Source: a virus
Taxonomy: Duplodnaviria > Caudoviricetes
Length of the DNA stretch: 64,000 bases
Reading direction: 5' to 3' (one strand)
Virus record (IMG/VR): IMGVR_UViG_3300042858_000011
Location: 24,010 to 88,009 of that record
Shown piece by piece: positions 557 to 59,790 of the stretch (within the stretch, counting starts at the first letter, position 1; every line of letters starts with the position of its first letter). The notes under the pieces were generated by a model, which worked only from the letters and a program-made list of their open reading frames with translations, had not been told where the DNA came from and made no database searches. The position numbers were made by a program, and so were the translations under genes.

Positions 557-576
557 ACTTTCAGCTGCTTTACAAT

Positions 577-2592
577 ATGACTTTTATTGTGGATGCAAAA
601 GCATACAGTCCATTTGTAAAAGATCGTATCAAAAATCTTGAAGTTGAGTATGATGAATTGTATGTTGACACAAATAGTATAACTTACAACTTTAGAGTTG
701 ACAGTTATTATAGTGATAGTTCTGCTCCAGTTTTATTTGTTAACAGAACAATTGATCTCAAAGTGATAACCAAAAAAGTAAATACTTTCAATAGATTGCT
801 TACTGATATAGAGAATGAAGCTTTTGGTTCCTATATTTGGAAGTATCAAAATACAATACTAGGTCTTGGTAGAAGAATTTCAGATCGTATTGCTTACACA
901 GACTTTGATATAGAGCATACGAACTCTTATCCGTCAATCAAATTAAGATTTCAACTGGATAGATCATTATTACCTATTGTTGATGTTCGCACTATATACA
1001 CTTCACAACGTTTATCAGTTTCAGATATTATGAACAAAACTATTAATAAATTTAACGAATTGATAAGTAGTTTTGCTATCTCAAAGATAAAATTTCTGTC
1101 GCATCCTTTTAATGATGTTGAAGCAAGCTACTTTACAAAAAGTTATAGAAATGATTTAGTGCTCACATTGTATGATATACTAAACCTCTGTGTGCAAGAC
1201 TATAAGCCTGTAGATTTATCTCTGTTATCTTATATTGCTCAACAAGAGAATGAATTAACTTTATATCTAATTCCGCTTACTGTTGATAATATAAATCCTA
1301 ATTCAGATTTTCCTGTTTTAACAAATATATTTGTTGATCAAAACATTTATCTTACAGAGAATGAATACAGTTTTAAGAAATATGATGATGTGATCGAAAT
1401 ACTCAAGAGTAACGCTTCGCAGCATACTAAACACAAAGCCATCGCTATTTTTAATCACAATTTACAACAACCAGATACAAATACACAAAGAAGAACAGAT
1501 GTTGTAGATAGTGATGGAAATTATTTGTCTGCAATGGAAAATATCTCCAATGAATCTAGTAGTATGTTTGATTATAAACAGATAACAGAATCACTACTAA
1601 AACTCAATACTTTTGTAACAAGAAACTCAAAACTAATTAAGTTTAACAATGATGATGTAATTATGGTTTATAATGACCGATATAGCAGTGAGCTAGACCT
1701 AGATTTTGATTTTCCATTTTTATGTAGATACAGTGAATTTTATTTACGACCTACATCCAATTCTACAATTATTAGGATAGCTAATTTGGTTATTCCATTT
1801 AATCTAACAATAGGTTTAGTAAATATATTGGATGTTGATCTAACTCCATCTACAAATAATACAATCACACCTCAATCATCTAGCAATAATCTTTATAAAC
1901 GAGTAGAACAGGGATTAGAACAAAGATTGAATGAGTATATGCAAGCAAATAATCTGCAAGAAAAAAGAGTCATCAAATACTATAGGGTTCTACCAAATGA
2001 TTTGGATAACATTACTCTAATAGTTAATGTGTTAGAGAGAAGTCTTGTGTTAGCACATCAGTTAGCTAAAACAGATGAAAAGCAAATGTATGCTAGAAGA
2101 GCAGAACAATTGCTAAATGAGAATAAAAGCAGTATTGCACCCATTATAAATATTACACCAACTAACTTTTCCAATCTTATCAAGAATTCACATAGCACAC
2201 TATCTGATTTGTTGAGAAAAGATTATTATCATTTTGGTAGACCTGAACAAGTTTCTATTATTTTCACATCGCTAGGCAATCTTGGTAATATCAATCAGCA
2301 ATTATATAACCTAATAAACGTAATTAAAGATGGATCAGGATCAGAACAAAACATATTAGAAATGTTAAATCAGTTTGCTACAAACGTTAACAATATTTTA
2401 CGACTTTTTACTTATCTACCAGATAACAATAAGCAAATTCTACGAAATATTATAGATGATGTCCTAACAAATTTAAACTATCTGCTAGGATTGATTGACA
2501 AAATTATAACAACAGATACCACAAGATCTATGATAATAAATCAAATTGAGAGCATTATGTATAGTATACAGCAAAAAACGAGTTTTGTTTAG
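577..2592 (+). CDS. hypothetical protein, probable virion/late protein (671 aa)
   Basis: Long ORF, AGC-class upstream motif; no family recognised. Confidence 0.6.
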   Translation: MTFIVDAKAYSPFVKDRIKNLEVEYDELYVDTNSITYNFRVDSYYSDSSAPVLFVNRTIDLKVITKKVNTFNRLLTDIENEAFGSYIWKYQNTILGLGRRISDRIAYTDFDIEHTNSYPSIKLRFQLDRSLLPIVDVRTIYTSQRLSVSDIMNKTINKFNELISSFAISKIKFLSHPFNDVEASYFTKSYRNDLVLTLYDILNLCVQDYKPVDLSLLSYIAQQENELTLYLIPLTVDNINPNSDFPVLTNIFVDQNIYLTENEYSFKKYDDVIEILKSNASQHTKHKAIAIFNHNLQQPDTNTQRRTDVVDSDGNYLSAMENISNESSSMFDYKQITESLLKLNTFVTRNSKLIKFNNDDVIMVYNDRYSSELDLDFDFPFLCRYSEFYLRPTSNSTIIRIANLVIPFNLTIGLVNILDVDLTPSTNNTITPQSSSNNLYKRVEQGLEQRLNEYMQANNLQEKRVIKYYRVLPNDLDNITLIVNVLERSLVLAHQLAKTDEKQMYARRAEQLLNENKSSIAPIINITPTNFSNLIKNSHSTLSDLLRKDYYHFGRPEQVSIIFTSLGNLGNINQQLYNLINVIKDGSGSEQNILEMLNQFATNVNNILRLFTYLPDNNKQILRNIIDDVLTNLNYLLGLIDKIITTDTTRSMIINQIESIMYSIQQKTSFV

Positions 2593-2594
2593 TA

Positions 2595-3215
2595 TTATTG
2601 TTCAAGCATTGTTATGTCAATACAAATACCTAGATCTGCATACTCTAATGTTGAGTATAATGTGATATGATCTTGTATGAGATATTTGTCTTCATTAAAC
2701 AAAACAATTAGTATTCTCTTGTCTTTTATATTGTTGTTGTAATTTTTTTGAATGATTTTATCATCGGTTGATATATAGAAAGCTACAATTTTGTTTTCAT
2801 ATTCTAATATTCCTTTGTCAAATATTAGTTGATCGTTATTGATTAATACATCTAGTTTTAATGAGCAAGGGTAGTTATTGTTTACATTGCCAAGTATATC
2901 ATTCAGTATATATGTTAATTCATCAATGATTTTACATTTATTGTTTACATTATTTAATGTCTCAAACTTACAAGCAAACGATAGATTTTTGCTTACAACT
3001 ACTTTGATATTTGCTCTGCAATAATCACTTATTAGATTTTTGTTTAATATAATCTTGTCATCATATAAAATACCTTCAATGTAATTTTTGTAAACTATTG
3101 GCTTTCCTTGTTCTGTTACAATAGTAAAATTTTTTACATCACTAGGTAAATCAATTAATGGATCTTTGATTTGAATAAATTGTGAGTTGCTTAATACATA
3201 GGCATATATATTCAT
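2595..3215 (-). CDS. hypothetical protein
   Basis: 206-aa ORF with CAA-N5-CTAAATTT-N6-ATG upstream. Confidence 0.7.
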   Translation of the reverse strand: MNIYAYVLSNSQFIQIKDPLIDLPSDVKNFTIVTEQGKPIVYKNYIEGILYDDKIILNKNLISDYCRANIKVVVSKNLSFACKFETLNNVNNKCKIIDELTYILNDILGNVNNNYPCSLKLDVLINNDQLIFDKGILEYENKIVAFYISTDDKIIQKNYNNNIKDKRILIVLFNEDKYLIQDHITLYSTLEYADLGICIDITMLEQ

Positions 3216-3245
3216 ACAAAAAAATTTAGTTTAGTTGCTAAACTA

Positions 3246-5126
3246 TTAGGCTAGCACACGCTTCCAATCAATGTTTCTGCTAGCAGGAACATCAAACAAT
3301 TGTTTCACCTTTTCCTTAAACTTTTCAACTAATAGTTCTTGTTTTTGTTGAATAGTTACTTTATCAGATTTTAGTTTTAGGTAGTATATATATGTCTCTC
3401 TTGTTTGCGAGAATCTATATACTCTGGCTACTGCTTGATGCAGATCTACATCTCTAAAGGGTAAGTCTGCATACATAACTATCCTGCCTTCTGTTAAAGT
3501 AAAGCCAAATGATAAAGATGAATATGTTGCTATCAGTATTGTTCCTGGTTGCTGCTTGAATATTTGAATTGATTTTTTACGTTCTTTCAAAGATTGTTCT
3601 CCTGTAACAATTACAATATTCCTAATACCATGTTTCTCAAGAGTTTGTTTTATGGCTTCCAATGTGTATTTGTAGTTCGTGAATATTATTATTCTTTCCT
3701 GCTTGGAAACTAAATCTTTTATGAGCTTAATATTCTTTTCATATAACTCGATGACTAACTCTATTAATCTTTGTTTATATATACTACTTAATTCTTTAGT
3801 GAAACAAATCAATTTACCCATAAATAGTTGCGACATTGCTTTGTTAAATTGTTCAGCTAAAGTATGTTCGTTTCTACTTTGCAGAAAATCATAGATTTGT
3901 TTGCGAGCGTAAACTAAATCTCTTGTTAATTTAATTTGATTTTGTTTGGCGTTTTCCCTAATCATTTTTACATAATCACTAATTTGATTATCTGTATCAA
4001 CTTGTTCTATTTTTGATAGCACATCAATTAGGTTTTGTTTATAGGTGTTGTAGTTTTGATTTACTTGTTGCAGACAACCTGATGACTGATCTCTGGCTTG
4101 CTCAATAATACTATCAACTATGTATTTATCAATATTATCTACATTTGTTTCTATAACTATTTCATGTTTTGGTGGTAAGGATAGACTGCTACTAATTTGA
4201 CTTCTTGTTACTCTGATCATACTTAAACTAAGTCTATGCTTTATCAAATCTATAGCATGTGTAGCATAAGCTGAATTATAGGCTTTAATGAAATAAGGGT
4301 AAGCATCCATATCAAATAAAGGATCCAACAATAAAAATGCTCCTGATAGTTCAGCATATCTACCTTTGACTGGAGTTCCAGATAACAATAATACATCATT
4401 AATGTTGTTAGCAATGACAAATTTGTATAGAGATTGCATTGTCTGTGTATCAGCATATCTTATGACTTGAGCCTCATCTATGATAAGGAAAATTCTCTCA
4501 ATATTATAGTTCCACGGAACATGTATTTTTGAAACATTATTAAAGTTTGTTATGATTGCAATATGATTATGGTTTGGTTGATCTAAAGGAAAAGCGCAAA
4601 CCTGTTCTCTTGGTATGTTGGTTAATTTCTCAAATTCATCTAGCCAATTTAATATAAGTGTTTTGGGACAAACAACAATAACTTTTGTTCCATAGGCCAG
4701 TGATGTATATAGAGATGTTAGTGTTTTACCTGTGCCAACATCAAAGGCCAAATAATAACCTCTTAGTTTGAGGTTATCCTTATATTCACCGTAATGCTGA
4801 ACAAATTTATTTTGATGTGGCATTAACTCAACTTTGAAGATTTGTTTCGCTTTATCTAAATGTTTTGGTGTATCTGGTTTATGATCAAACAATATATGAT
4901 GCAATACAGTATTCTCAATTAGTTCACGAGCAATTTTTAGTTGATTGTTGGATATTAGTGATAGAACAATCTCAACTGTAAAAAAGCGATGAAATTTGTA
5001 GTATGTTTTGCTTCCTACTCTTACATCATCGATAATCATTTTTAAAAAATTTTTGTCCTGTTCACTAACATAATCTAGCAAATTCAAATCCGTTAGATAG
5101 AAGTTTTTGCTTTCAATAATTTGCAT
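3246..5126 (-). CDS. SNF2-family (SF2) helicase/ATPase
   Basis: Motifs FDVGTGKT (I), IIDEAQ (II), LSGTP (III), QAVARVYRFSQ (VI); start trimmed to MQIIE (alternative 5132). Confidence 0.9.
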   Translation of the reverse strand: MQIIESKNFYLTDLNLLDYVSEQDKNFLKMIIDDVRVGSKTYYKFHRFFTVEIVLSLISNNQLKIARELIENTVLHHILFDHKPDTPKHLDKAKQIFKVELMPHQNKFVQHYGEYKDNLKLRGYYLAFDVGTGKTLTSLYTSLAYGTKVIVVCPKTLILNWLDEFEKLTNIPREQVCAFPLDQPNHNHIAIITNFNNVSKIHVPWNYNIERIFLIIDEAQVIRYADTQTMQSLYKFVIANNINDVLLLSGTPVKGRYAELSGAFLLLDPLFDMDAYPYFIKAYNSAYATHAIDLIKHRLSLSMIRVTRSQISSSLSLPPKHEIVIETNVDNIDKYIVDSIIEQARDQSSGCLQQVNQNYNTYKQNLIDVLSKIEQVDTDNQISDYVKMIRENAKQNQIKLTRDLVYARKQIYDFLQSRNEHTLAEQFNKAMSQLFMGKLICFTKELSSIYKQRLIELVIELYEKNIKLIKDLVSKQERIIIFTNYKYTLEAIKQTLEKHGIRNIVIVTGEQSLKERKKSIQIFKQQPGTILIATYSSLSFGFTLTEGRIVMYADLPFRDVDLHQAVARVYRFSQTRETYIYYLKLKSDKVTIQQKQELLVEKFKEKVKQLFDVPASRNIDWKRVLA

Positions 5127-5152
5127 AAACATAAATCGCTGAGATATTATCG

Positions 5153-6161: not shown

Positions 6162-7763
6162 TTATTTGCCTGCGTATGCGAATGCAAATACTCTATTATT
6201 CATATTCTTAACATCTTGCTTAACTTTGTTTATATCCATAGAAGTAGATACGATGCGTCTTTTATGTAGCGTTTGTAGTATCTTTGCTCCAACCAATATT
6301 ACACCTATACCAATCAATCCTGCGATACCAACTTTGGCAAAAGTAGGTATATCGGAATATACTTGCTGCAATTTCTCTATTAGAGATTTACCAGTAGTTT
6401 GAACTTTTTCTGCTACATCACCAATCTTTTCAACAACTTCACCAGATTTTTGTTCTACATTAGCAGCAGTATCTTGAGCTTGTTTAGCAGCTTCCACTAT
6501 TTTATCTGTATTCAACGCTGTAAGCAAGCCAATTATAAAACCAAATATACCAGCACCAACAACTGGAGTAGCAGCTTTCAATATACCAACTAGAGCTGGA
6601 ATTATACCTGGATTTGCTTTTCTCTGACTAACTTTTGCGTAAGCTTCTTTGCTTACAAATTTACTTACTAGCTTTTTGTAATTGTTTATTCCTTTCTTAC
6701 CAGCTTGTTCGAAAATCGATACAGCTTCTTTTGCTACTTGTTTGACATCCAAAGTAGGATTTGTTACAATAAGAACACTAGCTATATCATCTAGCACAGC
6801 ATATGTAAGTTTGTCATTAGGTATGCTTGCAAATTCTCTAGCTGCTACTCTTACAGCTCTCTTCTTCATAATAAGCATTATTATTCCGACAATGCTTGCT
6901 GTTGCAACTGCTGTTGTGATGGTTGGATAATGTGTTACAAAATCTTTTATAAACTTAACTATAGATTCAACCTGTGATCCTATTTTTGAAAGTATTTGTG
7001 ATAACTCGGCTTTTAGTTTGCTGAAGAATGTAATTACCTCTTGGATGAATCTTTCAATAATATCACGAACCTTCATATAAACCTTCACAAATGGATCTTG
7101 TAGAATTCGTTTTTCCTCGGGAGTTAATACCTTATCTTTTATTTTTTCTTTAACTTCAGCTTTAAATTTTTCCCAACCTTGCTTAAAGTTCTCTGCTCCT
7201 TTCTTTTCCGAAATGTCTTGTGAATCTTGTTCCATTTTTACACCATAAACTTTGGATATATAGGAAGATGCAATAGCTGCAAAGTATGATTCAACATTAA
7301 TCATAGACTCAACATTTGCTTCCTCACCCTGTTCAACGTTAATTACCTCTATAGTAAATACAGCATCTTGCTCACCATATTTTGATCTAACATGAGATTG
7401 ATCAATCATTATATGCAAACTTTCACCTGGATTTGTAACTATGCTATTAGCCACTACTGCAGCACTATGTACAAATTCTTTAGGATTTTTTATGAATGGT
7501 ATTGATGGATTTGCTACGTTAACATAAACATCTACTTCTGATACTGGCAGATCTACTTCACCTACAACCACATTATTAATTTTTACTGTTGCTGATTGTT
7601 TTGAAGCTTCAAATACTATTGTCTCATCTAAATCATCAAATACATCAAAATCTTCTATTGCTGATTCTTTGGTTGTTTTACTATTGCTGACAATGGTTCT
7701 AATTACTCCTAAATATTGTCCTATCAAAAGACTATAAGGTGAAAGATATTCAGCTGTCAACAT
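6162..7763 (-). CDS. multi-pass membrane protein, probable virion/internal protein; paralog of 20983..22623
   Basis: Three Gly/Ala-rich hydrophobic segments; N-domain SATVKINNVVVGEVDLPVSEVDV matches NATVHIKNVAIGKTSIPVSDIRV of paralog; AGC-class motif. Confidence 0.7.
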   Translation of the reverse strand: MLTAEYLSPYSLLIGQYLGVIRTIVSNSKTTKESAIEDFDVFDDLDETIVFEASKQSATVKINNVVVGEVDLPVSEVDVYVNVANPSIPFIKNPKEFVHSAAVVANSIVTNPGESLHIMIDQSHVRSKYGEQDAVFTIEVINVEQGEEANVESMINVESYFAAIASSYISKVYGVKMEQDSQDISEKKGAENFKQGWEKFKAEVKEKIKDKVLTPEEKRILQDPFVKVYMKVRDIIERFIQEVITFFSKLKAELSQILSKIGSQVESIVKFIKDFVTHYPTITTAVATASIVGIIMLIMKKRAVRVAAREFASIPNDKLTYAVLDDIASVLIVTNPTLDVKQVAKEAVSIFEQAGKKGINNYKKLVSKFVSKEAYAKVSQRKANPGIIPALVGILKAATPVVGAGIFGFIIGLLTALNTDKIVEAAKQAQDTAANVEQKSGEVVEKIGDVAEKVQTTGKSLIEKLQQVYSDIPTFAKVGIAGLIGIGVILVGAKILQTLHKRRIVSTSMDINKVKQDVKNMNNRVFAFAYAGK

Positions 7764-7803
7764 ATTTTTAGTTAGCTAAATAATAAGTTCAATCAAAAAA
7801 TAA

Positions 7804-8397: not shown

Positions 8398-8407
8398 ACA
8401 AAAAAAT

Positions 8408-9118
8408 TTAGATTGGTTGGTTTGTTTCAAGTAATGTTGATGCTACTTCTGTAAGCAATATATCTCTTTCTGCCATATAACTTACTAACTCAAATTCATC
8501 TTTAAATACTTCTTTTACAAAGAGTTTATCAATAGCTTTACCATAAACATAAACAGATGTTAACACATCTCTATATACATCAGCATCAATAGCATTTTCC
8601 ATGCTAATCATTAATTCTATATTCTCTAGCTCATCATTAGTTAGTTCATTCTTGGCTTCATTCACTATTTGAGCAACCCGAAGTTTTATATCATCTTCCT
8701 TGATGTAACAATACTTTGGTAGCAGATTTTGTTCAATCTTTTCCTGAACAGTTACTATTATGTTATTGATCAATGTGCTTATATTTTCATACTCCTTAGC
8801 TAACGACACATCTTCAAAGAGCATATACTCCAAAGCCTTACGATAAAATTCTTTCACATCAGTAATATAAGTTTGATCCTCTTTAATCTCATTTTTGCTA
8901 TTGTTTTCTGTTTGTTCTTGTTTTACTACCGATTTTATAACTTTTGCAAAGGATAATAGATTTTCATCTATTGTCGAACTCGCTTCATTTATAATTTTCA
9001 TTTGAATTTCTACTATCTCTTTATCTTTTTGTTCTATGGGTAACGGAACTATTGAGGATGATTCATCAACGTTTTCATCGCTGTTTAGAATAACCTTAAG
9101 TAAATCATCTCTAAGCAT
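8408..9118 (-). CDS. acidic helical hypothetical protein, probable virion/head protein
   Basis: AGC-class motif; acidic, contains SMEN possible maturation-protease site. Confidence 0.55.
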   Translation of the reverse strand: MLRDDLLKVILNSDENVDESSSIVPLPIEQKDKEIVEIQMKIINEASSTIDENLLSFAKVIKSVVKQEQTENNSKNEIKEDQTYITDVKEFYRKALEYMLFEDVSLAKEYENISTLINNIIVTVQEKIEQNLLPKYCYIKEDDIKLRVAQIVNEAKNELTNDELENIELMISMENAIDADVYRDVLTSVYVYGKAIDKLFVKEVFKDEFELVSYMAERDILLTEVASTLLETNQPI

Positions 9119-9153
9119 TTACTTGTAGCTTAACATTCTAAGCAATGAAAAAA

Positions 9154-11249: not shown

Positions 11250-12545
11250 CTATTCATTATTTATACTCCCTTCAACGAATTGCTTTGGAATAGCTATTAC
11301 AAGTCCTATTGGTAAATCTCTGAAGTAAGTTATTTTATTTGTTTTTTTGCTTTTGACTCTAATTGTTATATTTGCATCAACGCTATCACCATCAAAGTCT
11401 CCTCCCAGTGGTGCACAAGCTAACGGATGTATTTGTATTGTATCTTGATCTGCTATAACTGGTTTTGCTGCTAGCCAAGATGTCTTATGCAAAGCTGGGT
11501 CTCTTTTATAAACCACTACAGCATCTGGTAAAACATCTTGCTCTAAAACCTTTCTAAAGAAGTTTATCAATTCTTGTGGAAACAGAGTAGGATAATTGGA
11601 AATCTTGTTTATAAGCTTAGTTATATCATTAACAGCAGGTTTAATCTCTTGTCTTGCAGTTTTTGTTATCTCTATAAATTCTTGTTTGTGTTTTGTTAGT
11701 ATGCTATTAATTATTTGTGGCTTGTATAGTTGCAACAGAGCTGTAAATGGAATAGCAATTTGGTCTATCTCAAGATTTGGATTAGGACTAATAACAGATC
11801 TTGCTGTGTAGTTAACTGTTTTGCTAGCAAGTTGTTCTCTAATAAAACCTGTTTTTGTTCCAAATTGTTCTGCTAACAAATCTATTAGTTTAACGATCAA
11901 CCTATACAATTTTGAGCTATTAGCATTACCAACTTCAAAAGTTTTGTTTTGTTCTATTATTTTTGAGTAAACATCTGTTAACGGATGTATTGATATTTTG
12001 TTGTCTATCTTTGAGTAATCTCTCCAACCAGGAGGAAGCACAATTATTTTGTTTGTTATCAAATTCTCAACTTTATTGTTTGATAATTTGATTATCTCAT
12101 TTATTAACTGACCGGATACACTATTCTGTTGAGCAATATACTCAATCAATTTAATCAGTTTGTTTTTCTCAAAGAAGTCTGCGAAGCCTTGCATCAAGAT
12201 TTTATGATTTGTGTAGCTAATCTCTTTCTCATCTTCCAAAACTAAATTCCCTTCTTCATCAATTGCTAAAATCCTATCTGGTCTGTTTCTGAATGCTCTG
12301 ATTGTGGGTAAATTATCCAGAATCATCAACACAGGAAACTTAGGGATATATACATTCAACGGTATATATCCCATTTGCTCAAACCATTTTGAACTTTTTC
12401 TCTCACCAAATAGATATTGTGAGTACAATCCATTTATTTGGCTCAGTAACTTTTGTTCATTTAAGTTTGCAGGTAATGGTTCCATAATAGCTGGAGCATT
12501 ATGCTCCTTAATAAATTGTTCCACATTTAGTAGTTCAAAAATCAT
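11250..12545 (-). CDS. phage RNA polymerase beta'-like subunit, N-terminus to catalytic motif, ending in putative split-intein N-half
   Basis: GLYSQYLFG, MGYIPL, VLPPGWR, ARSVISPNP, KRDPALH, catalytic GGDFDGD; terminates 44 aa later. Confidence 0.92.
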   Translation of the reverse strand: MIFELLNVEQFIKEHNAPAIMEPLPANLNEQKLLSQINGLYSQYLFGERKSSKWFEQMGYIPLNVYIPKFPVLMILDNLPTIRAFRNRPDRILAIDEEGNLVLEDEKEISYTNHKILMQGFADFFEKNKLIKLIEYIAQQNSVSGQLINEIIKLSNNKVENLITNKIIVLPPGWRDYSKIDNKISIHPLTDVYSKIIEQNKTFEVGNANSSKLYRLIVKLIDLLAEQFGTKTGFIREQLASKTVNYTARSVISPNPNLEIDQIAIPFTALLQLYKPQIINSILTKHKQEFIEITKTARQEIKPAVNDITKLINKISNYPTLFPQELINFFRKVLEQDVLPDAVVVYKRDPALHKTSWLAAKPVIADQDTIQIHPLACAPLGGDFDGDSVDANITIRVKSKKTNKITYFRDLPIGLVIAIPKQFVEGSINNE

Positions 12546-12578
12546 TGATTTTGATTGCTCAAGAAAACAGCAAAAAAA

Positions 12579-15186: not shown

Positions 15187-15202
15187 TGAGCACATTTTTT
15201 GA

Positions 15203-16096
15203 ATGATAGATTTACTACAACAAAACTATTCTAAATTGAAAGCAATAGAAGAGTTTAGTTTTAAACATATGCTTAGTTCATCAGCAGCTAAAGACTTTGT
15301 TGATAACTTAGTTGCAGAACAAAACAACCCATATTTAAGCAAGATATACAATCATCTTATAGATAACAACATATTAGTTATAACATATGACAGAGATTTG
15401 ATTAGCAGAACTATAACATACTTTCTTGGTTTAATAGTTAGAGGTCCTATGGTTTTAGGTTTCCATAGTCCAGAGAATAAAAAGATTTATTTGTTGCTAG
15501 ATAACAACTACATAGTATCCAAGCATACAAACCAACATATTAATAAGAGAATTATACAAACATTAATACATGAAACTGTTCATTATTTTGCTACAGTAAA
15601 ACCAAAAGAATTTTGTGAACAATTTGATACAATAATACAACGATTCTTCAAACTTGTTTTCTCAAACATAGACCCTAGGTTGGAGTATTATAAAATTGCA
15701 GATAGTTATTATGATTTGTTATATAACAGTAGAAAACAAATCTTTACAAAAAGTTATTATCAGACTTGGTTTGATACATTTATAAACTATGGGCGTGATG
15801 AAGTATTAAATGCTTTTGTTAAAGATTCACAGTATGATAAGGCATTTAACTACATGATTAAACATCCAGTTTATTTAAAGATTGTTGCTACACTCTATGT
15901 GGCAAATGGAAAAAGAGAAGCTATACCCTATTCTTTCTTTGCTGATATGTATAATGCCTATGTTAAGCTAACAGGTCAGTTAACAATTAACCTATACTAT
16001 CAGGAGTTATTTTATCCCGATGAAGTAATATGTGTGCTATCAGAAACAGATAAAAAGAGAGACAATATATTACAAAAGTTGTTACACTTGATCTAA
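15203..16096 (+). CDS. putative zincin metallopeptidase
   Basis: TLIHETVHY HExxH motif; AGC-class motif. Confidence 0.6.
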   Translation: MIDLLQQNYSKLKAIEEFSFKHMLSSSAAKDFVDNLVAEQNNPYLSKIYNHLIDNNILVITYDRDLISRTITYFLGLIVRGPMVLGFHSPENKKIYLLLDNNYIVSKHTNQHINKRIIQTLIHETVHYFATVKPKEFCEQFDTIIQRFFKLVFSNIDPRLEYYKIADSYYDLLYNSRKQIFTKSYYQTWFDTFINYGRDEVLNAFVKDSQYDKAFNYMIKHPVYLKIVATLYVANGKREAIPYSFFADMYNAYVKLTGQLTINLYYQELFYPDEVICVLSETDKKRDNILQKLLHLI

Positions 16097-16106
16097 ATTT
16101 TTTTGT

Positions 16107-17699: not shown

Positions 17700-17726
17700 T
17701 CTTTTTTTATTACAGCACAAATGTAG

Positions 17727-19878: not shown

Positions 19879-19911
19879 GTTGGTAGTTGCTTACTGATTA
19901 GCACAAAATTT

Positions 19912-20942: not shown

Positions 20943-20982
20943 TGTAAATAGATGCTAAATAGGTAAAAAAGCTAACAAGGTT

Positions 20983-22623: not shown

Positions 22624-22647
22624 TATTTTTTTGTTAGCATCAGCTAA

Positions 22648-24564: not shown

Positions 24565-24594
24565 TTTAGCGCTTAGCTTCAGCGGGTTAATAAG

Positions 24595-38777: not shown

Positions 38778-38806
38778 CCTAAATTTTTAAAAGCACATAA
38801 TGAAAT

Positions 38807-41527: not shown

Positions 41528-41539
41528 TTGCTTTATGCT

Positions 41540-42364: not shown

Positions 42365-42365
42365 T

Positions 42366-44414
42366 CTAGTTGGGTGCTATTCGACGTGTGGGAATTCCAG
42401 CAACTCTACTCAAATCTACTAATTCCCACTTACCATTATAATATTCAAGAACTGCTATATGAAAGTGATGTCCTGTAGACAGTCTGGATATGTATTCTGT
42501 TCTATTTATTTCATAATGTTTCATATCAACTACAACTATTTTACCATCACTAGTTTTTGCTCTTAATATGTAGTTTGCATCTCTAGAACCAAAAGAACAA
42601 ATACCAAAATAGCGACTTATTCTATTTATAATATTTGTTCCCATATCTATTTTTGGACTTCCAGTTGGTATATCAGTACCTGCATGATGTCCTAGACCAG
42701 GTCTTACATCTAACGGAACTGATGATGCAAATCTGAATTTGTTGTTATATAGTATGTTAGGTATTTGAGATATTAAACTGGTTGCACTATATTGTGTTGT
42801 TACAATATTTCCGTTACAGTCTAATGAAACTTCATCCAAACATAATCTACCAGAACGACTAATTTGTTGTTGTAATTGCTTACGTACATTATCATCTTCT
42901 GTAAATACCCACCTGTTATTTCTCAGAATGTAGGTTGTTATACGACCTCTTTCATACTTTACCTTAACTGGAACCTGTTCTCCATTAATAATTACATAAT
43001 TATTACATCCGATTGTTTTTATTGGTATTCTTGTTTTTGCATTTGGTTTGGTATAAGTATCTTTTTTTGGTGGAGCAATCGGTCCAGTAGCTCCAGTTCC
43101 TGTTTCAATGCTCAATCTATCCTTTGTTAGAGTCTTCAAAATTGGATGACCCATTGCTAACATAATCTCTCTAGACTGAAATTCATTATCTAGTTTAGAT
43201 ATATCTTGCTCTAAAACATACTTAATGGGATCAAAGAAATATGCTCCAGTAAATAGCGGTAAAGTCGGTTGAGCAAGATACTTGAGATCTTTAGTTGCAA
43301 CAACTATGTTTGCTATATCAGAGACAGTTAAGTTGATAGTTACTTTTTTAGGCCATCCGTTAGCAAAAGTTTCTTTGCTTGTTTGTAAATTAAAATCTGT
43401 TATAATTCCTAATGGTATGAATATTTTACCAGGAACTAAGAGTGTAACATAGTGAGGTTCACCAGCAAATAATTGAGAATAGTTTTGTAATATGGCTAAT
43501 ATATGTTTAATTAACCTGTTTGTTGCTTCAAATCTATTTAGATAGTCAGGTCCAGCTTGTTGCAAGGTCATACCTGTTAGATATAAAGATGGAACAAATA
43601 TATTCTCGTAAAATTGTCTAGTAGAATTTGCTACCAAAGTTATTGTTATTGAGCATTGACAATTGTAAGAGGTAGATGTATACACTCTTGGTAGTTGTAT
43701 GTTTTTAATTAACTTGGATAACAGTATGGCTAGAGTTGCTGTTTCCATAAGAGTTTCAGGTAGATTAGTTAGTATATTTGATGTTGGTTCATTTGTTGTA
43801 GTTGATTTATTAATTCCAATTAAATCGATTATAGATTTTGCAAGACTACTACCTAGATAAACTGATATACCATATTGTCTGAGCAACTGAACAAACCGTT
43901 CATCTAGATCTAATTCAGAATCGCTATAACGATTAGTTATTGTCTGACTAATGTCTACATTATCAGCTAAAAATCCTACCAAAACAGATCGCCTCAAGCT
44001 ACTAACCAATTTATTAACATTAACTCCTCTTATTACATCCATTGTATCAAATCTTTTAAGTTTTTCTGAATTACCGGATAATGATAATATATACTGAGCA
44101 ATTTTATCGTTATAATATCTGGCTCTGCCTCCAACAGACCTAATAAGCTTGTAAAATTCAAATACGTTGCTAGCAGATAGTTCAACTTTAGTTTTGTTCA
44201 AATCCAACGTTGTTAACAAACCGATTAGTAGAATTGATTGTATAGTTGTTAGTTGTCCTAAATTTATGTTTATAGGATCTAAGGGAAATAAATAACAAAT
44301 GTCACTTGTTATAATTGTATCTTTATAAACTTGACTCATTAATGCATCTGTATTTGAAGTCACATCTTTTCCGAAAACAGTGATAGTTCCAAATCTGCTT
44401 TCTAGGGTATACAT
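42366..44414 (-). CDS. baseplate hub/tube-initiator-like protein with C-terminal M23-like peptidase motifs
   Basis: LPRVY..TSY, PGKIFIPLGIITDF, GWPKKVTINLTV (gp48/gp54-like); HAGTD and STGHHFH. Confidence 0.6.
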   Translation of the reverse strand: MYTLESRFGTITVFGKDVTSNTDALMSQVYKDTIITSDICYLFPLDPININLGQLTTIQSILLIGLLTTLDLNKTKVELSASNVFEFYKLIRSVGGRARYYNDKIAQYILSLSGNSEKLKRFDTMDVIRGVNVNKLVSSLRRSVLVGFLADNVDISQTITNRYSDSELDLDERFVQLLRQYGISVYLGSSLAKSIIDLIGINKSTTTNEPTSNILTNLPETLMETATLAILLSKLIKNIQLPRVYTSTSYNCQCSITITLVANSTRQFYENIFVPSLYLTGMTLQQAGPDYLNRFEATNRLIKHILAILQNYSQLFAGEPHYVTLLVPGKIFIPLGIITDFNLQTSKETFANGWPKKVTINLTVSDIANIVVATKDLKYLAQPTLPLFTGAYFFDPIKYVLEQDISKLDNEFQSREIMLAMGHPILKTLTKDRLSIETGTGATGPIAPPKKDTYTKPNAKTRIPIKTIGCNNYVIINGEQVPVKVKYERGRITTYILRNNRWVFTEDDNVRKQLQQQISRSGRLCLDEVSLDCNGNIVTTQYSATSLISQIPNILYNNKFRFASSVPLDVRPGLGHHAGTDIPTGSPKIDMGTNIINRISRYFGICSFGSRDANYILRAKTSDGKIVVVDMKHYEINRTEYISRLSTGHHFHIAVLEYYNGKWELVDLSRVAGIPTRRIAPN

Positions 44415-44457
44415 AAGCTGACTTGCTTGCTGTTTCAATTAAATGATAACAAAAAAA

Positions 44458-44886
44458 CTATATAACTACCTGAGCAATATAATCTACTCCATTAATTCTT
44501 ACTCTCACTTCATAAAATGGTAGAGCATCAGATTGAGTTACTGCATCCACTTGATCATGGATAACATACTCATTTGTTGTTGGATCTTTAAGCAAATACT
44601 TTAAATTTAATTCTATACTTTCAATTAGTAATAAGAGTTCGCGAGCTTCTGTTTCACTTAGACCATAGTTAATCATGTTACGAACTATATCCTCTCTAAA
44701 ATCATTAAGTGAAGGATAATGAGTTTTACCAAGCAAATTGTATAAATAACTACCTCCAGTTAAATCTATTATAAAAGCATTTTTTGGAAAACTTAATGTT
44801 TTTATGATAAAGTATAATAACTTTAATGCTTCATCATCAATATCTCTTAAAATTGACCCATCATAAATGTTTTGTATTGGAAGCAT
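44458..44886 (-). CDS. possible baseplate wedge protein (gp25-like)
   Basis: LSFPKN...GGSYLYNLL pattern and size; AGC-class motif. Confidence 0.45.
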   Translation of the reverse strand: MLPIQNIYDGSILRDIDDEALKLLYFIIKTLSFPKNAFIIDLTGGSYLYNLLGKTHYPSLNDFREDIVRNMINYGLSETEARELLLLIESIELNLKYLLKDPTTNEYVIHDQVDAVTQSDALPFYEVRVRINGVDYIAQVVI

Positions 44887-44893
44887 CTACATA

Positions 44894-45949
44894 ATGCTAG
44901 ATATTAAGAGAATATATGCCACAGATAATTCAGAGATTACAAACTTATTCAAAAAAGTTCCTCTAAAAAAAGATGAAACTTCTGTTATGAAACTTTACCA
45001 ACTAACTTGTAAAGGTTCTGCTTCCGTTAACTATACAGAAACAGAAAAAAATAAATTAATTAGGATACCCATATTTACTTTATCTGTTAACAAAACAATT
45101 ATTTACATTCCAAAGTATGATTTATATAACGTTGACATTGTAACTCCTGTTAAAGAGTTAGAAGAATATTTTGGAAAGTTTTATGCCAAGTTTTTAGCAA
45201 CTCTATCAGATCAAGGAAAAATAGTTATAGTTAGAGATATCGTTTTACCCAGATTTATAGCCGTTCAATGTCCTACGTATGTAGCTGATAGATTTGTCTT
45301 GAATTCACTGCCCAAAATTGTTAGTGATTTATATATCATATTTAAAAGTAAAGATGAAGTCACTGTAGATGCTTTGTTATCTCCGATTAGTAAGATTAAA
45401 TTGATGCTTGATATGTATAACAATATCAACAACAGGTTTGATATATTAGTAGAGTATTTATCCAGCAATGTTGAAATATTTTTGGAACAGGTCTTGGAGA
45501 TGTTTAAATACTTTCTATTTTCACAGAAAGGACTAAATGTTAGTCAAATCAAAGATGAAGTTCATGCTAAAATAACACTTTACATTTTACATCACTTTAT
45601 ATCTCCATTAATGTTTCCGAATTTGACTGATCAACAAAGAGAACAAATCATAAACAAGTTTTCAAAACGATTGAACTATAAATTTGTTTACAATCCAAAT
45701 TACATACCAACACTGGGAAATCTGTTCTCATCAATATCCGAGTTAGATAAAGAGTTATACTACTATCAAGATGTAACAAGAGTATTTGCTCGTGCCTATA
45801 AAATACATCCGTATTTGCTATGGACTTTAAGTAATATTTATGGTATGTTGCATACTCTTATTGCGAATCAATTCAACATACAAATAATGAAGATACCTTT
45901 GTTATCAAGGTTTATTACCTTACAACTTCCTCTAAAAAGAGGAGAGTAA
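44894..45949 (+). CDS. hypothetical protein
   Basis: AGC-class motif; divergent start pair with 44886. Confidence 0.65.
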   Translation: MLDIKRIYATDNSEITNLFKKVPLKKDETSVMKLYQLTCKGSASVNYTETEKNKLIRIPIFTLSVNKTIIYIPKYDLYNVDIVTPVKELEEYFGKFYAKFLATLSDQGKIVIVRDIVLPRFIAVQCPTYVADRFVLNSLPKIVSDLYIIFKSKDEVTVDALLSPISKIKLMLDMYNNINNRFDILVEYLSSNVEIFLEQVLEMFKYFLFSQKGLNVSQIKDEVHAKITLYILHHFISPLMFPNLTDQQREQIINKFSKRLNYKFVYNPNYIPTLGNLFSSISELDKELYYYQDVTRVFARAYKIHPYLLWTLSNIYGMLHTLIANQFNIQIMKIPLLSRFITLQLPLKRGE

Positions 45950-52597: not shown

Positions 52598-53872
52598 CTA
52601 AACACTAATTGTTAGTTTATCTCTATCAATATGTACAAACAATTTAACACTAATTATTCTATTGTAGATATTAAATGTAAACAAAAGTTCAATGTATACT
52701 AAACCAAGTGCTTCCACATGTTCTATGTTTAGTATTTGAAAATCTTGTACAATTTCTTTCAGATACAAATTTATATCATCTACGAATGCATTAAGCGCAT
52801 CCAAAACCTTATTTATACTAAGCGAATGTAGAGCCCTTAATAAATAGACTCTTAATATTTTCTTCAAAATAGATATTCCTGCTATGAAGTATTCTTGATA
52901 AAATTTGTGCTTGTGTGTGTAAAGATAATCTGTTAATACATCTTCAGCAATTAACTGAGTTGTATTTGTATTCGGATCAATTAAATACTTAAAATCAGCA
53001 TGATCAACTGTTAAAGTTTTTTGTTGTAATCTTGCTTGTAGTAACAGAGCATAGTATATGTAAGACAATAAAATATCTTTATCTCTAAAGTAAGGAAGGT
53101 AATTAAATTGAAAGACTTCATGTGTCAAAGAATCATTATCTAGTCTGCGTAAAGCAAATAGGTATTCCTTCTGATTCACTTCAGGATAATGATGCGAAGC
53201 ATAAACAACAAAACCAGAACCGTAAACTTCCTTATATTCATAGTATAGTTTGTTTAGCCAATCATCCATAATAGGTATTTGTTCTGCATCTAATTGTTCA
53301 GGTAAAACTATAAATGTAATATCATAACCAGTTGTTAATGTTCTGTATAAGTTATATAATAAATCTTCAAACTGAATCACCTCAATTGTATAAGTTAAAG
53401 CTTGATCATCCAAATCATTTATGTTTATATTGTTTAAACTTTCCCTATCTATAAAAAATGCATCTGTGATATCTCTGTGATTTGTGTAATCAATCAATCT
53501 TAATTGAGATGATAATATCTTTGCTCTTATGTTAAGACCTGCTGGTAAAGTTCTTATTGAGTATGCAATAGTTTGATTACTTATTGATAGTTTGTAGTAG
53601 ACTACTGTGCTTGTTCTTGTTTCTGGTAGAACATACACATAGAAGGGTAAGTTGTTACTTGCTAACTTCCAAGCAACAAAATAAGAACTGTAGCTATTAC
53701 TATTAATTATCTCAATGGGAATTTTACTTACTAATTTATTCAAACTATTAATAAAGATTAAATCTTTTGTGTATGCTTTACCCTTAACAAAAATAATAGT
53801 TGTTAGCGGATCAAATTTTGGTTCTTCTACTTTTTCCTTTATAAAAGTGTTAAGCTGCAAAGCATAAAACAT
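52598..53872 (-). CDS. divergent tail-sheath-like protein
   Basis: C-terminal helix + VYIELLF..NRIISVKLFV pattern parallels sheath C-domain; AGC-class motif. Confidence 0.45.
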   Translation of the reverse strand: MFYALQLNTFIKEKVEEPKFDPLTTIIFVKGKAYTKDLIFINSLNKLVSKIPIEIINSNSYSSYFVAWKLASNNLPFYVYVLPETRTSTVVYYKLSISNQTIAYSIRTLPAGLNIRAKILSSQLRLIDYTNHRDITDAFFIDRESLNNININDLDDQALTYTIEVIQFEDLLYNLYRTLTTGYDITFIVLPEQLDAEQIPIMDDWLNKLYYEYKEVYGSGFVVYASHHYPEVNQKEYLFALRRLDNDSLTHEVFQFNYLPYFRDKDILLSYIYYALLLQARLQQKTLTVDHADFKYLIDPNTNTTQLIAEDVLTDYLYTHKHKFYQEYFIAGISILKKILRVYLLRALHSLSINKVLDALNAFVDDINLYLKEIVQDFQILNIEHVEALGLVYIELLFTFNIYNRIISVKLFVHIDRDKLTISV

Positions 53873-53894
53873 TTATTTGTTAGCTCAAGTCAAA

Positions 53895-54113
53895 ATGCTT
53901 TTCACAGAAATGCAAATATACCTTGACTTAAACAATGAAGAGGTTATCACTTTACCTTCATACACTATATATCAATACAGACCTGAGATCATGGCTTTAA
54001 GAGAAAAAAATATAATTTATCATGATCAGATAAATGATTACATAAAGTTTAACATACTAATAAATACGAAGAAGAAGTTTATATCCGATTTTGAATTTGT
54101 AGATAGATTTTAG
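53895..54113 (+). CDS. small hypothetical protein
   Basis: AGC 13 nt before MLFTEM. Confidence 0.55.
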   Translation: MLFTEMQIYLDLNNEEVITLPSYTIYQYRPEIMALREKNIIYHDQINDYIKFNILINTKKKFISDFEFVDRF

Positions 54114-54145: not shown

Positions 54146-54531
54146 TCTAAATCAACTCCAAATCTAAAGACCATGTAGTAATGTAGAAGTTTTGTGTATA
54201 TGAGATCTAAAACTAGTGCTTCACTTCCAAAACATTCAATTAAAATATCGTATGTTTCCTCGTTTATAACATTTTTAAAGTTACGAGTTAATCTTACTAT
54301 CTCGTTTGATACATATGATTCAAAATCTACAAAATTACCGACTATTGTATCATTAAATTGTGATAGAGCCAAAGCATTAGCTATACAATAATTTTCTACT
54401 ATCTCCATACAAATTTGTTTTTTAAAATTGTCATACATGTCCATTTCCAATTCATATTCTTGATCTATATCCTCATCTACAAAATCATTAGTTTTGTCTC
54501 TCATAAAGATTTTTTTTAGCCAATCAAACAT
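54142..54531 (-). CDS. hypothetical protein
   Basis: AGC 13 nt before MFDWLKK. Confidence 0.65.
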   Translation of the reverse strand: MFDWLKKIFMRDKTNDFVDEDIDQEYELEMDMYDNFKKQICMEIVENYCIANALALSQFNDTIVGNFVDFESYVSNEIVRLTRNFKNVINEETYDILIECFGSEALVLDLIYTKLLHYYMVFRFGVDLE

Positions 54532-54562
54532 ATTCCCAACAGCTGTTACAAAAAATAAAAAA

Positions 54563-55222
54563 CTAACATTTAGCGACGCTAGGGAATAATTTATCACGAT
54601 AATATAATCCTTTCGGATCCCACTTTGGATTAAAACAAGGAACTGCTGCTACATATCTGAACGATACACTGAACTGAGATAAATCAGTTGCAGATACGTC
54701 TCCTGCTATAGCATCATTCGATATTGATTCTGGGTAAACATTGTAGAATATGATTTTCAAATCTATTGCAGATAGGTCTGGTATTAGGTAATAGACTGTT
54801 AATCTACCAGACATTTTTGGTGGATCATAGTATATGGCTTTGCCTGAGAAGTCATCCCAAGTTTTTCTCCAAAGCAAGAAGAAATCTCTAGCAGAAGGTT
54901 TTCTTGTTTCCAGAAATTGTAAGGTTATGGTTCCTGGCTCTTCATGCTTAGGAGCAGATATAGCATATCTACCACCATACACTTGTTGCTTTGCATAAGT
55001 AGATCTCGGTATCCAGTCTGAAATAGATATGGTTCTAGCAGCTAATTTTACACCAAAATCTTTATCACCACCATATTTTGTTATGTAGTTAAATAAATCT
55101 CTATTAACATCTGGAACTAATCTTGGTAATTCTATTACAGCAAATGCAAAATTTGTTGTAGGTATTATGTCTGGTTCTGTTATTGATTTCTTTAATCCTG
55201 TCGCACCTGGAACATAAGGCAT
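54563..55222 (-). CDS. tail tube protein
   Basis: GTITLQFLE..FFLLW...IIFYNVYPESI...FSVSFRY gp19-like pattern. Confidence 0.75.
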   Translation of the reverse strand: MPYVPGATGLKKSITEPDIIPTTNFAFAVIELPRLVPDVNRDLFNYITKYGGDKDFGVKLAARTISISDWIPRSTYAKQQVYGGRYAISAPKHEEPGTITLQFLETRKPSARDFFLLWRKTWDDFSGKAIYYDPPKMSGRLTVYYLIPDLSAIDLKIIFYNVYPESISNDAIAGDVSATDLSQFSVSFRYVAAVPCFNPKWDPKGLYYRDKLFPSVAKC

Positions 55223-55285
55223 AAAGAACTTATGCTTTTGAGATCACAATATATCAAATTATTCAACCGCTCTAAATTTTAGACC

Positions 55286-57847: not shown

Positions 57848-57874
57848 TTTTTTGTTTTTATCAGCTAAACTAAA

Positions 57875-58570
57875 ATGCAGAAATTCTTTATGATTTCTGG
57901 CTTAACTATATACACACTGATACTCATGTTCATATTTGTAGATCTAGTTTATGTTTTTAAATCTTTTGCTGTGCATACGTTACAGACAATACCATTAGCG
58001 TTAGGTGTAGAATTATTAGCAGCATACTTTTCGTTTGCAGCTATCTATTATCGTAAATTAATTCTAAAGATTATTGCTTTATCATTTGGAGCATTTGTTT
58101 GGTTTTTAGTTATGACTGCAACTACAAAACTATGGACAGATATCTCTTTACTCTCAGTAGCAATAACTATATTTGTTCCTTTTGCTAACCTTGTTTTACC
58201 AAGTATAATTGCTTACATATTGAGTAATACAGAAAACAAACAAGTACAATTGAACCTAGAGTCTGCTAACAATAATAATGAAGAAACACCAAGAGTGGAT
58301 GCAGAAACAAACACTAAAAAGAATAACAATATATCATTTGATGTTATTGCTACAGAACAAAAAATTAAAGCTTTACAGCAGGACAAAGAATTAGTAGCAA
58401 AACTAAGTAAACTAAAACGTTTATTACACCGCTACAAAATAATAGAGTTCAATAACGGTTCTATCTATCTTGGTGTTGATAGAAAGCAAGCCAAAAACAT
58501 CAAATATTTAACCGCAGAAGATATAAAGAAACTAGATGGAGTTAAAATTGTATACAAAAATAAAACCTAA
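57875..58570 (+). CDS. membrane protein (4 N-terminal TM segments)
   Basis: Hydrophobic segments then soluble tail; AGC-class motif. Confidence 0.65.
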   Translation: MQKFFMISGLTIYTLILMFIFVDLVYVFKSFAVHTLQTIPLALGVELLAAYFSFAAIYYRKLILKIIALSFGAFVWFLVMTATTKLWTDISLLSVAITIFVPFANLVLPSIIAYILSNTENKQVQLNLESANNNNEETPRVDAETNTKKNNNISFDVIATEQKIKALQQDKELVAKLSKLKRLLHRYKIIEFNNGSIYLGVDRKQAKNIKYLTAEDIKKLDGVKIVYKNKT

Positions 58571-59109
58571 CCAGTACTATTAGATTTTTTTGTTATTTGC
58601 TCTGCAATAAATGCTTCCAATTTCTGAATGATAGCATCAAGATATTCATAAACATTGTTTATATTGGTTTCGCTGTTCATAGCAGTTACAACTTTACTTA
58701 ATTCTTTTTGCAAGAATTTTAACACATACTTTTTCTCTAGATCATTTATTAGTTTCCTATGTAATATCTGTATCAGAGTTACAATATAATCTATTTTTGA
58801 GAGCAATATCTCTTTATATAGTTGTTCATCTATATCATTTACATTGATAGCATTTATATCATCTATATTGGATTGAACTTTATTTATATCTAACTCTGCA
58901 TCCAAATCTATTAAACTATCATCATTGTTTTCTAAACTGTTTTCTTGTTCATTTAAACTAAAATCCGTTAAACTTAAATCATTGTTTTTCAAACTGTTTT
59001 CATTATTGTTTAAATTTGTGCTTTCTGTTTTATTTCCTTCAGACTCCAAAAAGATTATGATGTTATTTATCTTTTTTATGCTACTATCAAAACTTTCGTA
59101 TGAAAACAT
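58567..59109 (-). CDS. Asn/Asp-rich hypothetical protein, probable virion protein
   Basis: AGC 12 nt before MFSYES. Confidence 0.6.
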   Translation of the reverse strand: MFSYESFDSSIKKINNIIIFLESEGNKTESTNLNNNENSLKNNDLSLTDFSLNEQENSLENNDDSLIDLDAELDINKVQSNIDDINAINVNDIDEQLYKEILLSKIDYIVTLIQILHRKLINDLEKKYVLKFLQKELSKVVTAMNSETNINNVYEYLDAIIQKLEAFIAEQITKKSNSTG

Positions 59110-59790
59110 AAAATGATAGCTACAACATACATTTGATAGCACATACTATAGAAAGTGAACTTAGTGAATATTTCACTTTTTTTGTACACAATACATTTCT
59201 TAAATCTTATTGCTTTCTTATCTACTGTTTTTGAATCGCATTGCATTAAAACTTCCAAACAATAGATGTAAGTCTAATATATTTGTTTGCAGAAAACATT
59301 TCAAATGTATATGATATACTGTTTCTAAATATCTATTAACAGAAAGATTCTGTGAATACGATTGCAAATACAGTTGTATTGAAATAAAATGAATTCTATT
59401 GCAATAGACAAAAAAAGAAATATTTCTCTGTAAACAGATTATGATCTATAGCATAACAGAATACAGTATTATATGTTTGCGAAAAACAGAAAATAGTTTT
59501 TCTTTATAATCTGTAGTCACAATAGTTTAATTTCTATTGCAAAGAACAAAAAAGTAAAATTTGATTGCATAGAAACTATTGTATCGTTTTGTATCTGATC
59601 TGTTAATTGTTTTGTCTTTCTGTTTCATTGTTTGTTATGCAATGCTAAATTATATATTTAGTATAATATGTTATATACATAACGTATAGAGGATAAATAA
59701 GCTATAAATATTGTTACTATATCGGAACGGAATAATAACAGTACAGTATACATATTATCTATAACGTTATTACGAAATAGATAGATTATC

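Follow-up and report, generated by a model that had tools for sequence, protein, structure and literature searches.

What marks the gene starts of an uncultivated phage from hot springs, most of whose genes lack a recognizable ribosome binding site? This question is raised by a stretch of viral DNA of 64,000 nucleotides (nt), referred to as the window, which corresponds to bases 30403-94402 of the phage contig C110 (94,403 bp). The triplet AGC, located 12-14 bases ahead of the start codon, marks about 40% of the genes of this phage, which we call class II. A second group, class I, carries the element CTAAATTT upstream of the ATG. A first-pass annotation of the window had listed 29 class-II starts and proposed that AGC is a minimal late promoter read by the RNA polymerase of the phage. 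The observation of the motif is real and strong, and we could confirm it. With regard to its function, AGC(A/T)-N8-10-ATG is probably the core of a minimal promoter of non-early genes that is read by a multisubunit RNA polymerase of the phage, with transcription starting at or near the AUG to give leaderless mRNA.

AGC at a fixed distance from the start codon

Each of the 29 listed starts is an ATG codon with AGC at -15 to -12, as had been claimed. The A of the triplet is found at -14 in 12 sites, at -13 in eight, at -12 in eight and at -15 in one. The base that follows AGC is A in 17, T in 10 and G in two of these sites; for a set of 41 sites, the numbers are 24, 14 and three. The stretch that separates AGC from ATG is rich in A (42%) and poor in G, and the base directly before ATG is T in 12, A in 12, G in three and C in two of the 29 sites. 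The listed start is the first in-frame ATG of its open reading frame (ORF) in 27/29 cases. The exceptions are 5126 and 44894, for which an earlier in-frame ATG is present 42 and 27 nt upstream, respectively.

Independently of this list, we called ORFs greedily on the entire contig C110 and analyzed the first ATG of each of the 105 ORFs. AGC occurs 15, 13 and eight times at -14, -13 and -12, respectively, and about 1.2 times per position elsewhere. A comparison with internal ATGs had been suggested in the first-pass annotation, and AGC is indeed not equally frequent there: it is present at -14 to -12 of 36/105 gene starts versus 21/1795 internal ATGs (binomial p 2e-42). In a scan of all 3-mers across each of the positions -45 to -3, the top rank is taken by AGC at -14/-13. 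The pattern is repeated on a second contig, C161 (22.5 kb, 30.4% GC), where 11 of 20 genes are class II. C161 is assigned to the same phage because it is 96-99% identical to a 129-kb viral contig that bears a 97%-identical capsid gene. The cellular contigs of the bin to which C110 belongs (1258 genes) show a flat AGC profile of about 1.2% per position, and their top ATG-locked signal is GGAG/GAGG. In 30 other low-GC contigs of the bin, 89 of 98 genes have neither motif. The phage YerA41, scanned identically and used only as a control, yields AAGG/AGGA and has a different organization with Shine–Dalgarno (SD) sites. The motif is thus specific to the phage.

A second line of evidence comes from the interior of genes. 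At -15 to -12 of intragenic ATGs on both strands, the flanking offsets predict 132.6 occurrences of AGC, but only 42 are observed (0.32x, P 4e-20). None of the other 64 triplets downstream of AGC comes close to the depletion of ATG, the next one being at 0.67x, and AGC in turn shows the strongest depletion among the 64 triplets upstream of ATG. The dip at -16 to -12 is found on the sense strand (36 versus about 94 expected) and on the antisense strand (20 versus about 70 expected). AGC by itself is not avoided. Since the pair is depleted but not AGC alone, it is the pair at this spacing that selection removes, whatever its orientation, and the simplest explanation for avoidance on the antisense strand is a signal that acts on DNA in either orientation. 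These observations point to AGC and ATG at fixed spacing as the functional unit, as expected of a DNA-level start signal whose ATG matters. Two features, its tie to the start codon and the removal of its chance copies from the genome, make the promoter candidate recognizable in the sequence by itself.

Enrichment at starts and avoidance of the pair within genes refute the explanation that the motif arises by chance or through start codons picked to fit it. A downstream ATG had been chosen for two of the 29 listed starts, which would favor such an artefact, but the enrichment holds under the motif-blind rule of taking the first ATG, recurs on the second contig and is absent from both the cellular contigs and YerA41. 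We regard this explanation as practically negligible.

Class-II genes had also been described as devoid of SD sites, and this holds for both classes. None of the 78 class-I and class-II genes on C110 has an SD-like tetramer, compared with 10 of 25 motif-less genes (p 1e-7). A GGAGG-like purine tract 5-12 nt before the start is likewise found in 0/78 motif genes, in a scan that does detect SD sites in YerA41 and in the cellular controls. The motif-less genes comprise three operon-internal genes with GGAG-type sites, those of two GC-richer islands, those within the initial 6.4 kb of the contig and some tiny ORFs. A constant, short spacing between element and start codon, combined with the lack of a ribosome binding site, matches the promoter architecture of leaderless genes. 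Any transcription start downstream of the class-II AGC would leave a leader of at most about 10 nt.

Class I, divergent junctions and the predicted site of transcription start

The architecture of class I is R-C-A-A-C N4 CTAAATTT N6 ATG, with exactly N6-ATG following CTAAATTT in 35 of 45 occurrences. CTAAATTT spans -14 to -7 of its ATG, so that AGC cannot occupy -15 to -12 of the same ATG. The mutual exclusivity that had been proposed for the two motifs therefore holds at these positions, but is a geometric necessity. At -16, AGC does occur: four class-I genes (38692, 46625, 57056 and a contig gene at window -1328) have it fused to CTAAATTT as AGCTAAATTT. By analogy to AR9, expression during all of infection is conceivable for these genes and for the tail sheath gene, which may carry both signals. 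Window 38696-38709, at the class-I site of gene 38692(-), is a perfect palindrome of 14 bp, AGCTAAATTTAGCT, that places CTAAATTT on each strand. The CTAAATTT at 31981(-) is located away from the ATG, and the leader that follows it holds a GGAGG, indicating that an SD site is used when a leader exists.

Class I resembles the early promoters of virion RNA polymerases as reported for AR9 (AAATATATATTAT-(6N)-G), phiKZ and phiR1-37, which have an AT-rich element and a conserved start site 6 nt past it (PMC5312081). It differs from them in sequence and in the additional R-C-A-A-C. Its geometry is that of the promoters from which injected virion RNA polymerases transcribe early genes, and class I may represent such a promoter. 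With the start site 6 nt past the element as in these phages, transcription of class-I genes is predicted to start on the A of ATG.

Genes at divergent junctions need their own promoters, and the presence of the motifs at these junctions supports a promoter role. Of the 48 genes located at such junctions on C110 and C161, 41 have a motif of class I or class II. In 11 divergent pairs both genes are class II, and in six of these the ATGs are 20-23 nt apart and have a central AGCT (four pairs) or AGCAGCT/AGCTGCT (two pairs) in common. At this distance, there is no space for another upstream element. The interlocking described earlier for the pairs 44886/44894, 556/577 and 53872/53895 is borne out, with gaps between the ATGs of 7, 20 and 22 nt.

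These junctions also bear on the possibility that AGC acts in the RNA, either as an SD-independent binding site for the ribosome or a factor, or as a cleavage site of a phage endoribonuclease that yields gene-sized mRNAs with short leaders. Such a role would agree with the absence of SD sites and with the finding of a single motif per gene whose distance to the start codon is fixed. This also applies to 29 co-directional class-II genes on C110 and C161, which are possibly organized in operons. It would not account for the equally strong depletion on the antisense strand. Moreover, divergent junctions, which must contain a promoter, carry the motif and show no other conserved element, and class I, at the same position, matches a known promoter geometry. 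We therefore consider a function in the RNA unlikely.

Direct evidence on transcript ends is sparse. Eighteen RNA-labelled libraries from hot springs and microbial mats contain the phage stretch, and four of these metatranscriptome runs were examined as assembled contigs. Contig ends are found at 9118, exactly on a class-II ATG, and, followed by adapter, at 7746 and 9833; these ends are anecdotal hints only. A recurring end at 22616-22618 coincides with a polymorphism, which makes contig ends unreliable as markers of transcript ends. Further adapter-bearing ends at 7836 and 16062, about 30 nt before the stops of 7804-8397(-) and 15203-16096(+), might represent either artefacts or defined RNA 3′ ends that immediately precede the promoter of the next gene. 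The same RNA-library contigs reveal strain-level indels in class-II genes (window 19302-19756 and 21601-21915), including in-frame differences of 6, 21 and 42 nt and a 384-nt skip.

Alternatively, AGC might overlap the transcription start itself, similar to the TATG of phiKZ, where the late motif is reported to overlap the start site (PMC7598289). In this case, 10-13 nt of A-rich sequence without an SD site would form a fixed leader, and translation would depend on the proximity of the AUG to the 5′ end. The A-rich, G-poor stretch between AGC and ATG is in line with such an initiator, which would likewise predict a fixed spacing. However, the ATG would still be required to explain why the pair is avoided but not AGC alone, and RNA-contig ends fall at the ATG (9118) or within the ORF (7746) and not at AGC, although this is anecdotal. 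An initiator of this type appears improbable to us.

In the promoter reading that we prefer, AGC(A/T), followed after 8-10 bases by ATG, would be the promoter core of middle and late genes. The ATG would serve twice, as start codon and as part of the promoter signal. Transcription would begin on the A of AUG or a few bases upstream, so that no usable leader is made and an SD site is not needed.

Gene classes, RNA polymerases and known promoters

All 17 class-I genes with a functional PHROG label belong to DNA, RNA or nucleotide metabolism; they include QueC, QueD, QueE, FolE and two polymerase subunits. Among the 16 labelled class-II genes, seven encode structural or packaging proteins (capsid, sheath, adaptor-like, terminase, a weak hub match and two tape-measure-like proteins), compared with 0/17 in class I (p 0.003). 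Three are RNA polymerase subunits, and six are the ribonucleotide reductase large subunit, thymidylate synthase, DNA ligase, RusA, a helicase with uncertain start and a transposase-like protein. The claim that the motif marks virion and lysis genes thus stands for capsid, sheath, terminase and tape-measure-like genes, but metabolic enzymes carry it too. Class II is better described as "non-early" than as "virion and lysis", and since it is not limited to virion and lysis genes, the motif alone does not predict virion membership. The idea that the two motifs form a code from which hypothetical virion proteins can be predicted is overstated in this respect.

With regard to the individual products named in the first-pass annotation, capsid and sheath could be supported. 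For the tubes, the neck and the endolysin there is no family support, and the only match for the hub is a weak PHROG match of a C110 gene upstream of the window. For 20 class-II proteins that were scanned, Pfam gave nothing above cut-offs and PHROGs gave no match for most; the protein Atlas gave no usable match for 20983-22623.

No fewer than five split beta/beta′ genes of RNA polymerase are present in the phage, and they form two paralogous sets; two are class I and three are class II. In the known scheme, genes of the non-virion polymerase are reported to be early and genes of the virion polymerase late (PMC7598289), and the functional split between class I and class II would fit this scheme. 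The most likely reader of the class-II promoter would be a non-virion enzyme produced from early genes. For the class-II beta′-N gene (window 12545), the best AR9 match is g145, annotated as virion RNA polymerase subunit; for the class-I beta-like gene (window 16107), it is the non-virion g089.

Late promoters of phage T4 consist of a single short element near -10. A host RNA polymerase redirected by a sigma-like factor of the phage, as in T4, would be conceivable given the T4-like features of the phage (gp23-like capsid protein, clamp loader, UvsX). The number of RNA polymerase genes of its own speaks against this. Furthermore, matches to a sigma-70-like promoter in window 5001-25000 are below those of shuffled sequences (105 versus 130 +/- 9.8), and no sigma-like gene was found among 119 scanned proteins. 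We judge a redirected host polymerase to be very unlikely. In the same part of the window, terminator-like hairpins are not enriched (7 versus 4.4 +/- 2.4 in shuffles).

The late promoter of AR9 is described as AACA-N6-T-A/G(+1), which is very short (PMC5312081). As in our phage, a four-base element is located about 10 bp before the start, ahead of virion genes and many other genes, and AR9 also has two split multisubunit RNA polymerases. Here, the motif precedes late or virion genes (capsid, sheath, terminase, tape-measure-like) as well as polymerase paralogues. The two systems differ in the element, which is AACA in AR9 and AGC followed by A or T here, and in spacing, with 7 nt from element to start site in AR9 and 8-10 nt from element to ATG here. 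The leaders reported for AR9 are 26-491 nt long (PMC5312081), in contrast to the start-codon-locked element of our phage. AR9 has uracil DNA, and its late promoter requires a template that contains uracil, whereas the thymidylate synthase gene suggests thymine DNA here.

In phiKZ, the late promoter is reported to be the equally brief T(-3)ATG(+1), in which each of the four bases is needed and which is read by the non-virion multisubunit polymerase (PMC7598289). Similar to our findings, this consensus is very short, includes ATG and occurs too often to suffice alone. In our phage, the ATG is the start codon, a second element, AGC, is located upstream, and T precedes ATG in only 12 of the 29 sites. 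Differential RNA sequencing (dRNA-seq) of early phiKZ infection gave 5′ untranslated regions of mostly 31-40 nt and revealed no leaderless transcript (PMC8244752). A start-codon-locked unit of AGC and ATG that points to leaderless mRNA is shown by neither AR9 nor phiKZ. The analogy to these phages drawn in the first-pass annotation is thus appropriate with respect to the very short consensus; the sequence differs from both and AGC is locked to the start codon. In its mode of action, the motif appears to resemble the minimal late promoters of both AR9 and phiKZ, but it belongs to neither type.

A parallel to a promoter element in place of a ribosome binding site is cellular. In Deinococcus-Thermus, a -10 motif few bp before ORFs is reported to mark leaderless genes, and the distance to the start codon matters (PMC12340547). 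There, a TATAAT-like motif is used by the cellular sigma-A polymerase, whereas AGC or CTAAATTT is used here in a phage with its own polymerases. Unlike such leaderless genes, the cellular contigs of the bin of this phage use SD sites. The Thermus phage phiYS40 is said to have mostly leaderless middle and late transcripts, which are made by the host polymerase. Among phages with multisubunit polymerases, no report of a start-codon-locked or leaderless architecture was found in the literature, with supplementary tables outside the search.

Several points weigh against a leaderless promoter read by a phage polymerase. The strict AR9 spacing would place the class-II start 1-3 nt before the ATG and not on it. 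A tblastn search of the assembly for a homologue of AR9 gp226 gave nothing below E 7, in an incomplete genome and for a fast-diverging family. Class II contains enzymes that are usually early (ribonucleotide reductase large subunit, thymidylate synthase, ligase). The class-II beta gene on C161 also matches the non-virion g089 best, so that assigning the paralogues to virion and non-virion sets by best AR9 match is ambiguous, and we do not use it as proof. The RNA libraries, being assembled contigs, do not show start site, strand or timing. On C110 and C161 together, 49 of 99 AGC-N9-11-ATG sites are gene starts and 50 are not, and the AGC triplet is over-represented overall (1.37x); seven defined bases can therefore not be the entire specificity. 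Part of the difference may be seen in the fourth base, which is C in 0/49 true sites versus 14/50 non-start sites (p 4e-5). Finally, there are 0 changes in 11 AGC triplets among relatives that are 96-98% identical, an outcome whose probability by chance is roughly estimated at about 0.13; footprinting across relatives has low power because these are nearly identical. The window contains no tRNA or Rfam RNA that could have shown the motif without ATG.

Overall, the promoter reading is well supported, if indirectly, from the sequence. The original proposal of a minimal late promoter for the phage polymerase is supported by the behavior as a DNA-level start signal, the presence of phage polymerase genes and the different gene functions of the two classes. 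It has to be amended in that the element would serve non-early genes generally, is locked to the start codon and probably gives leaderless mRNA.

A more far-reaching version can be formulated, in which the start codon is part of the promoter and the non-virion polymerase reads AGC(A/T) together with the ATG 8-10 bp further on, where it would also begin transcription. Nearly every gene would then be a leaderless unit of its own, the AGCT palindrome would be a complete bidirectional core for genes 22 bp apart, and recognition may need 7-deazaguanine. This last point is proposed because the G:C pairs of the element are confined to AGC and genes for QueC, QueD, QueE and FolE are present, which suggest that the phage DNA carries a 7-deazaguanine base. 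It may mark the phage DNA, as uracil does for AR9. Taken as a whole, we regard this version as doubtful. The QueD-, FolE- and QueC-like genes are located at window 7804-8397(-), 47339-47959(+) and 60201-61019(+), and the QueE-like gene at C110 13778-14539(-); all are class I. A TGT/DpdA-like gene was not found on the phage contigs.

The phage contigs, their relatives and the implications of the motif

The GC content of the C110 window is 31.8%, and the other contigs of its 2.0-Mb bin average 40%. C110 is a phage contig with split RNA polymerase beta/beta′ genes, a two-piece DNA polymerase, primase, DnaB-type helicase, both ribonucleotide reductase subunits, UvsX, a gp23-like capsid protein, tail sheath and large terminase. 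The two pieces of the DNA polymerase appear to be encoded separately, at window 12579-14135(-) and C110 19869-21689(+), and both genes are class I. Positions and annotations of the class-II sites, together with two occurrences of CTAAATTT, are given in Table 1.

Table 1. Motif sites in window coordinates; motif positions are relative to the A of the ATG, and protein lengths are in amino acids (aa).
Feature	Position	Strand	Motif	ATG	Gene and remarks
Class-II site	554..569	-	AGC at -13	556	224-aa gene running off window; AGCAGCT core common with site for 577
Class-II site	563..579	+	AGCT at -14	577	671 aa, without family match
Class-II candidate	5124..5140	-	AGCG at -14	5126	helicase; in-frame ATG also at 5168, start uncertain
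Class-II site	7761..7777	-	AGCT at -14	7763	533 aa; RNA-library contig ends at 7746, then adapter
Class-II site	9116..9130	-	AGCT at -12	9118	236 aa; one RNA-library contig end exactly 9118
Class-II site	12543..12559	-	AGCA at -14	12545	RNA polymerase beta′-N-like, 431 aa
Class-II site	15189..15205	+	AGCA at -14	15203	297 aa
Class-II site	17714..17729	+	AGCA at -13	17727	virion structural / adaptor-like protein
Class-II site	19876..19891	-	AGCA at -13	19878	343 aa
Class-II site	19900..19914	+	AGCA at -12	19912	270 aa
Class-II site	20940..20956	-	AGCA at -14	20942	71 aa
Class-II site	20970..20985	+	AGCT at -13	20983	546 aa
Class-II site	22636..22650	+	AGCA at -12	22648	273 aa
Class-II site	24074..24090	-	AGCA at -14	24076	210 aa
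Class-II site	24562..24578	-	AGCT at -14	24564	RusA-like resolvase
Class-II site	24581..24597	+	AGCG at -14	24595	732 aa
Class-II site	35184..35200	-	AGCA at -14	35186	major capsid protein, gp23-like
Class-II site	38792..38809	+	AGCA at -15	38807	tail sheath; CTAAATTT also at 38779-38786, 28 nt before ATG
Class-II site	41525..41539	-	AGCA at -12	41527	319 aa
Class-II site	42362..42378	-	AGCA at -14	42364	274 aa
Class-II site	44412..44427	-	AGCA at -13	44414	682 aa; extra AGC at -17 mutated in two relatives, -13 copy kept
Class-II site	44884..44898	-	AGCA at -12	44886	142 aa; gp25 / sheath-initiator-like, lead only
Class-II candidate	44882..44896	+	AGCA at -12	44894	351 aa; earlier in-frame ATG 44867
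Class-II site	53870..53885	-	AGCT at -13	53872	424 aa; AGCT palindrome common with site for 53895
Class-II site	53882..53897	+	AGCT at -13	53895	72 aa
Class-II site	54529..54544	-	AGCT at -13	54531	129 aa
Class-II site	55220..55236	-	AGCA at -14	55222	219 aa
Class-II site	57863..57877	+	AGCT at -12	57875	231 aa
Class-II site	59107..59121	-	AGCT at -12	59109	180 aa
Representative class-I site	16084..16109	+	R-C-A-A-C N4 CTAAATTT N6 ATG	16107	before RNA polymerase beta-like gene
CTAAATTT away from ATG	31937..31981	-	CTAAATTT	31939	leader of about 28 nt with GGAGG

Two GC-richer islands, at window 30525-33359 and about 61000-64000, contain genes with true GGAGG sites and without either motif. The islands have repeats in common: a flank ATAAAAATCTAC is located ahead of CTAAATTT at 31981(-) and 61838(+), and the upstream regions of 152-aa genes at 33131(-) and 63201(+) are near-identical. 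The first island is missing in the alignments to all related contigs and for this reason looks like a mobile insertion. Upstream of the window, C110 1-6415 is GC-richer sequence with six or seven minus-strand genes without either motif; it could be another island or a chimeric contig end.

For the polymerase genes, the nearest annotated phages, which include AR9, PBS1, phiR1-37, Staphylococcus S6-like phages and YerA41, are only 22-35% identical. The capsid protein has no match in the phage collection, and only two homologues, with 97% and 58% identity, were found among 5.8 billion proteins. All eight related loci are at 95-97% protein identity, and none was found in the genome-contig collection. 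The completeness of the 129-kb relative is rated at 50%.

If the predicted start sites hold, this would be the first phage of its kind with an essentially leaderless transcriptome, as far as our literature search found. The polymerase of this thermophile-associated phage would then use a very small, possibly bidirectional promoter. If true, the motif would also provide a rule by which start codons can be corrected and early genes told apart from non-early ones in an uncultivated lineage.

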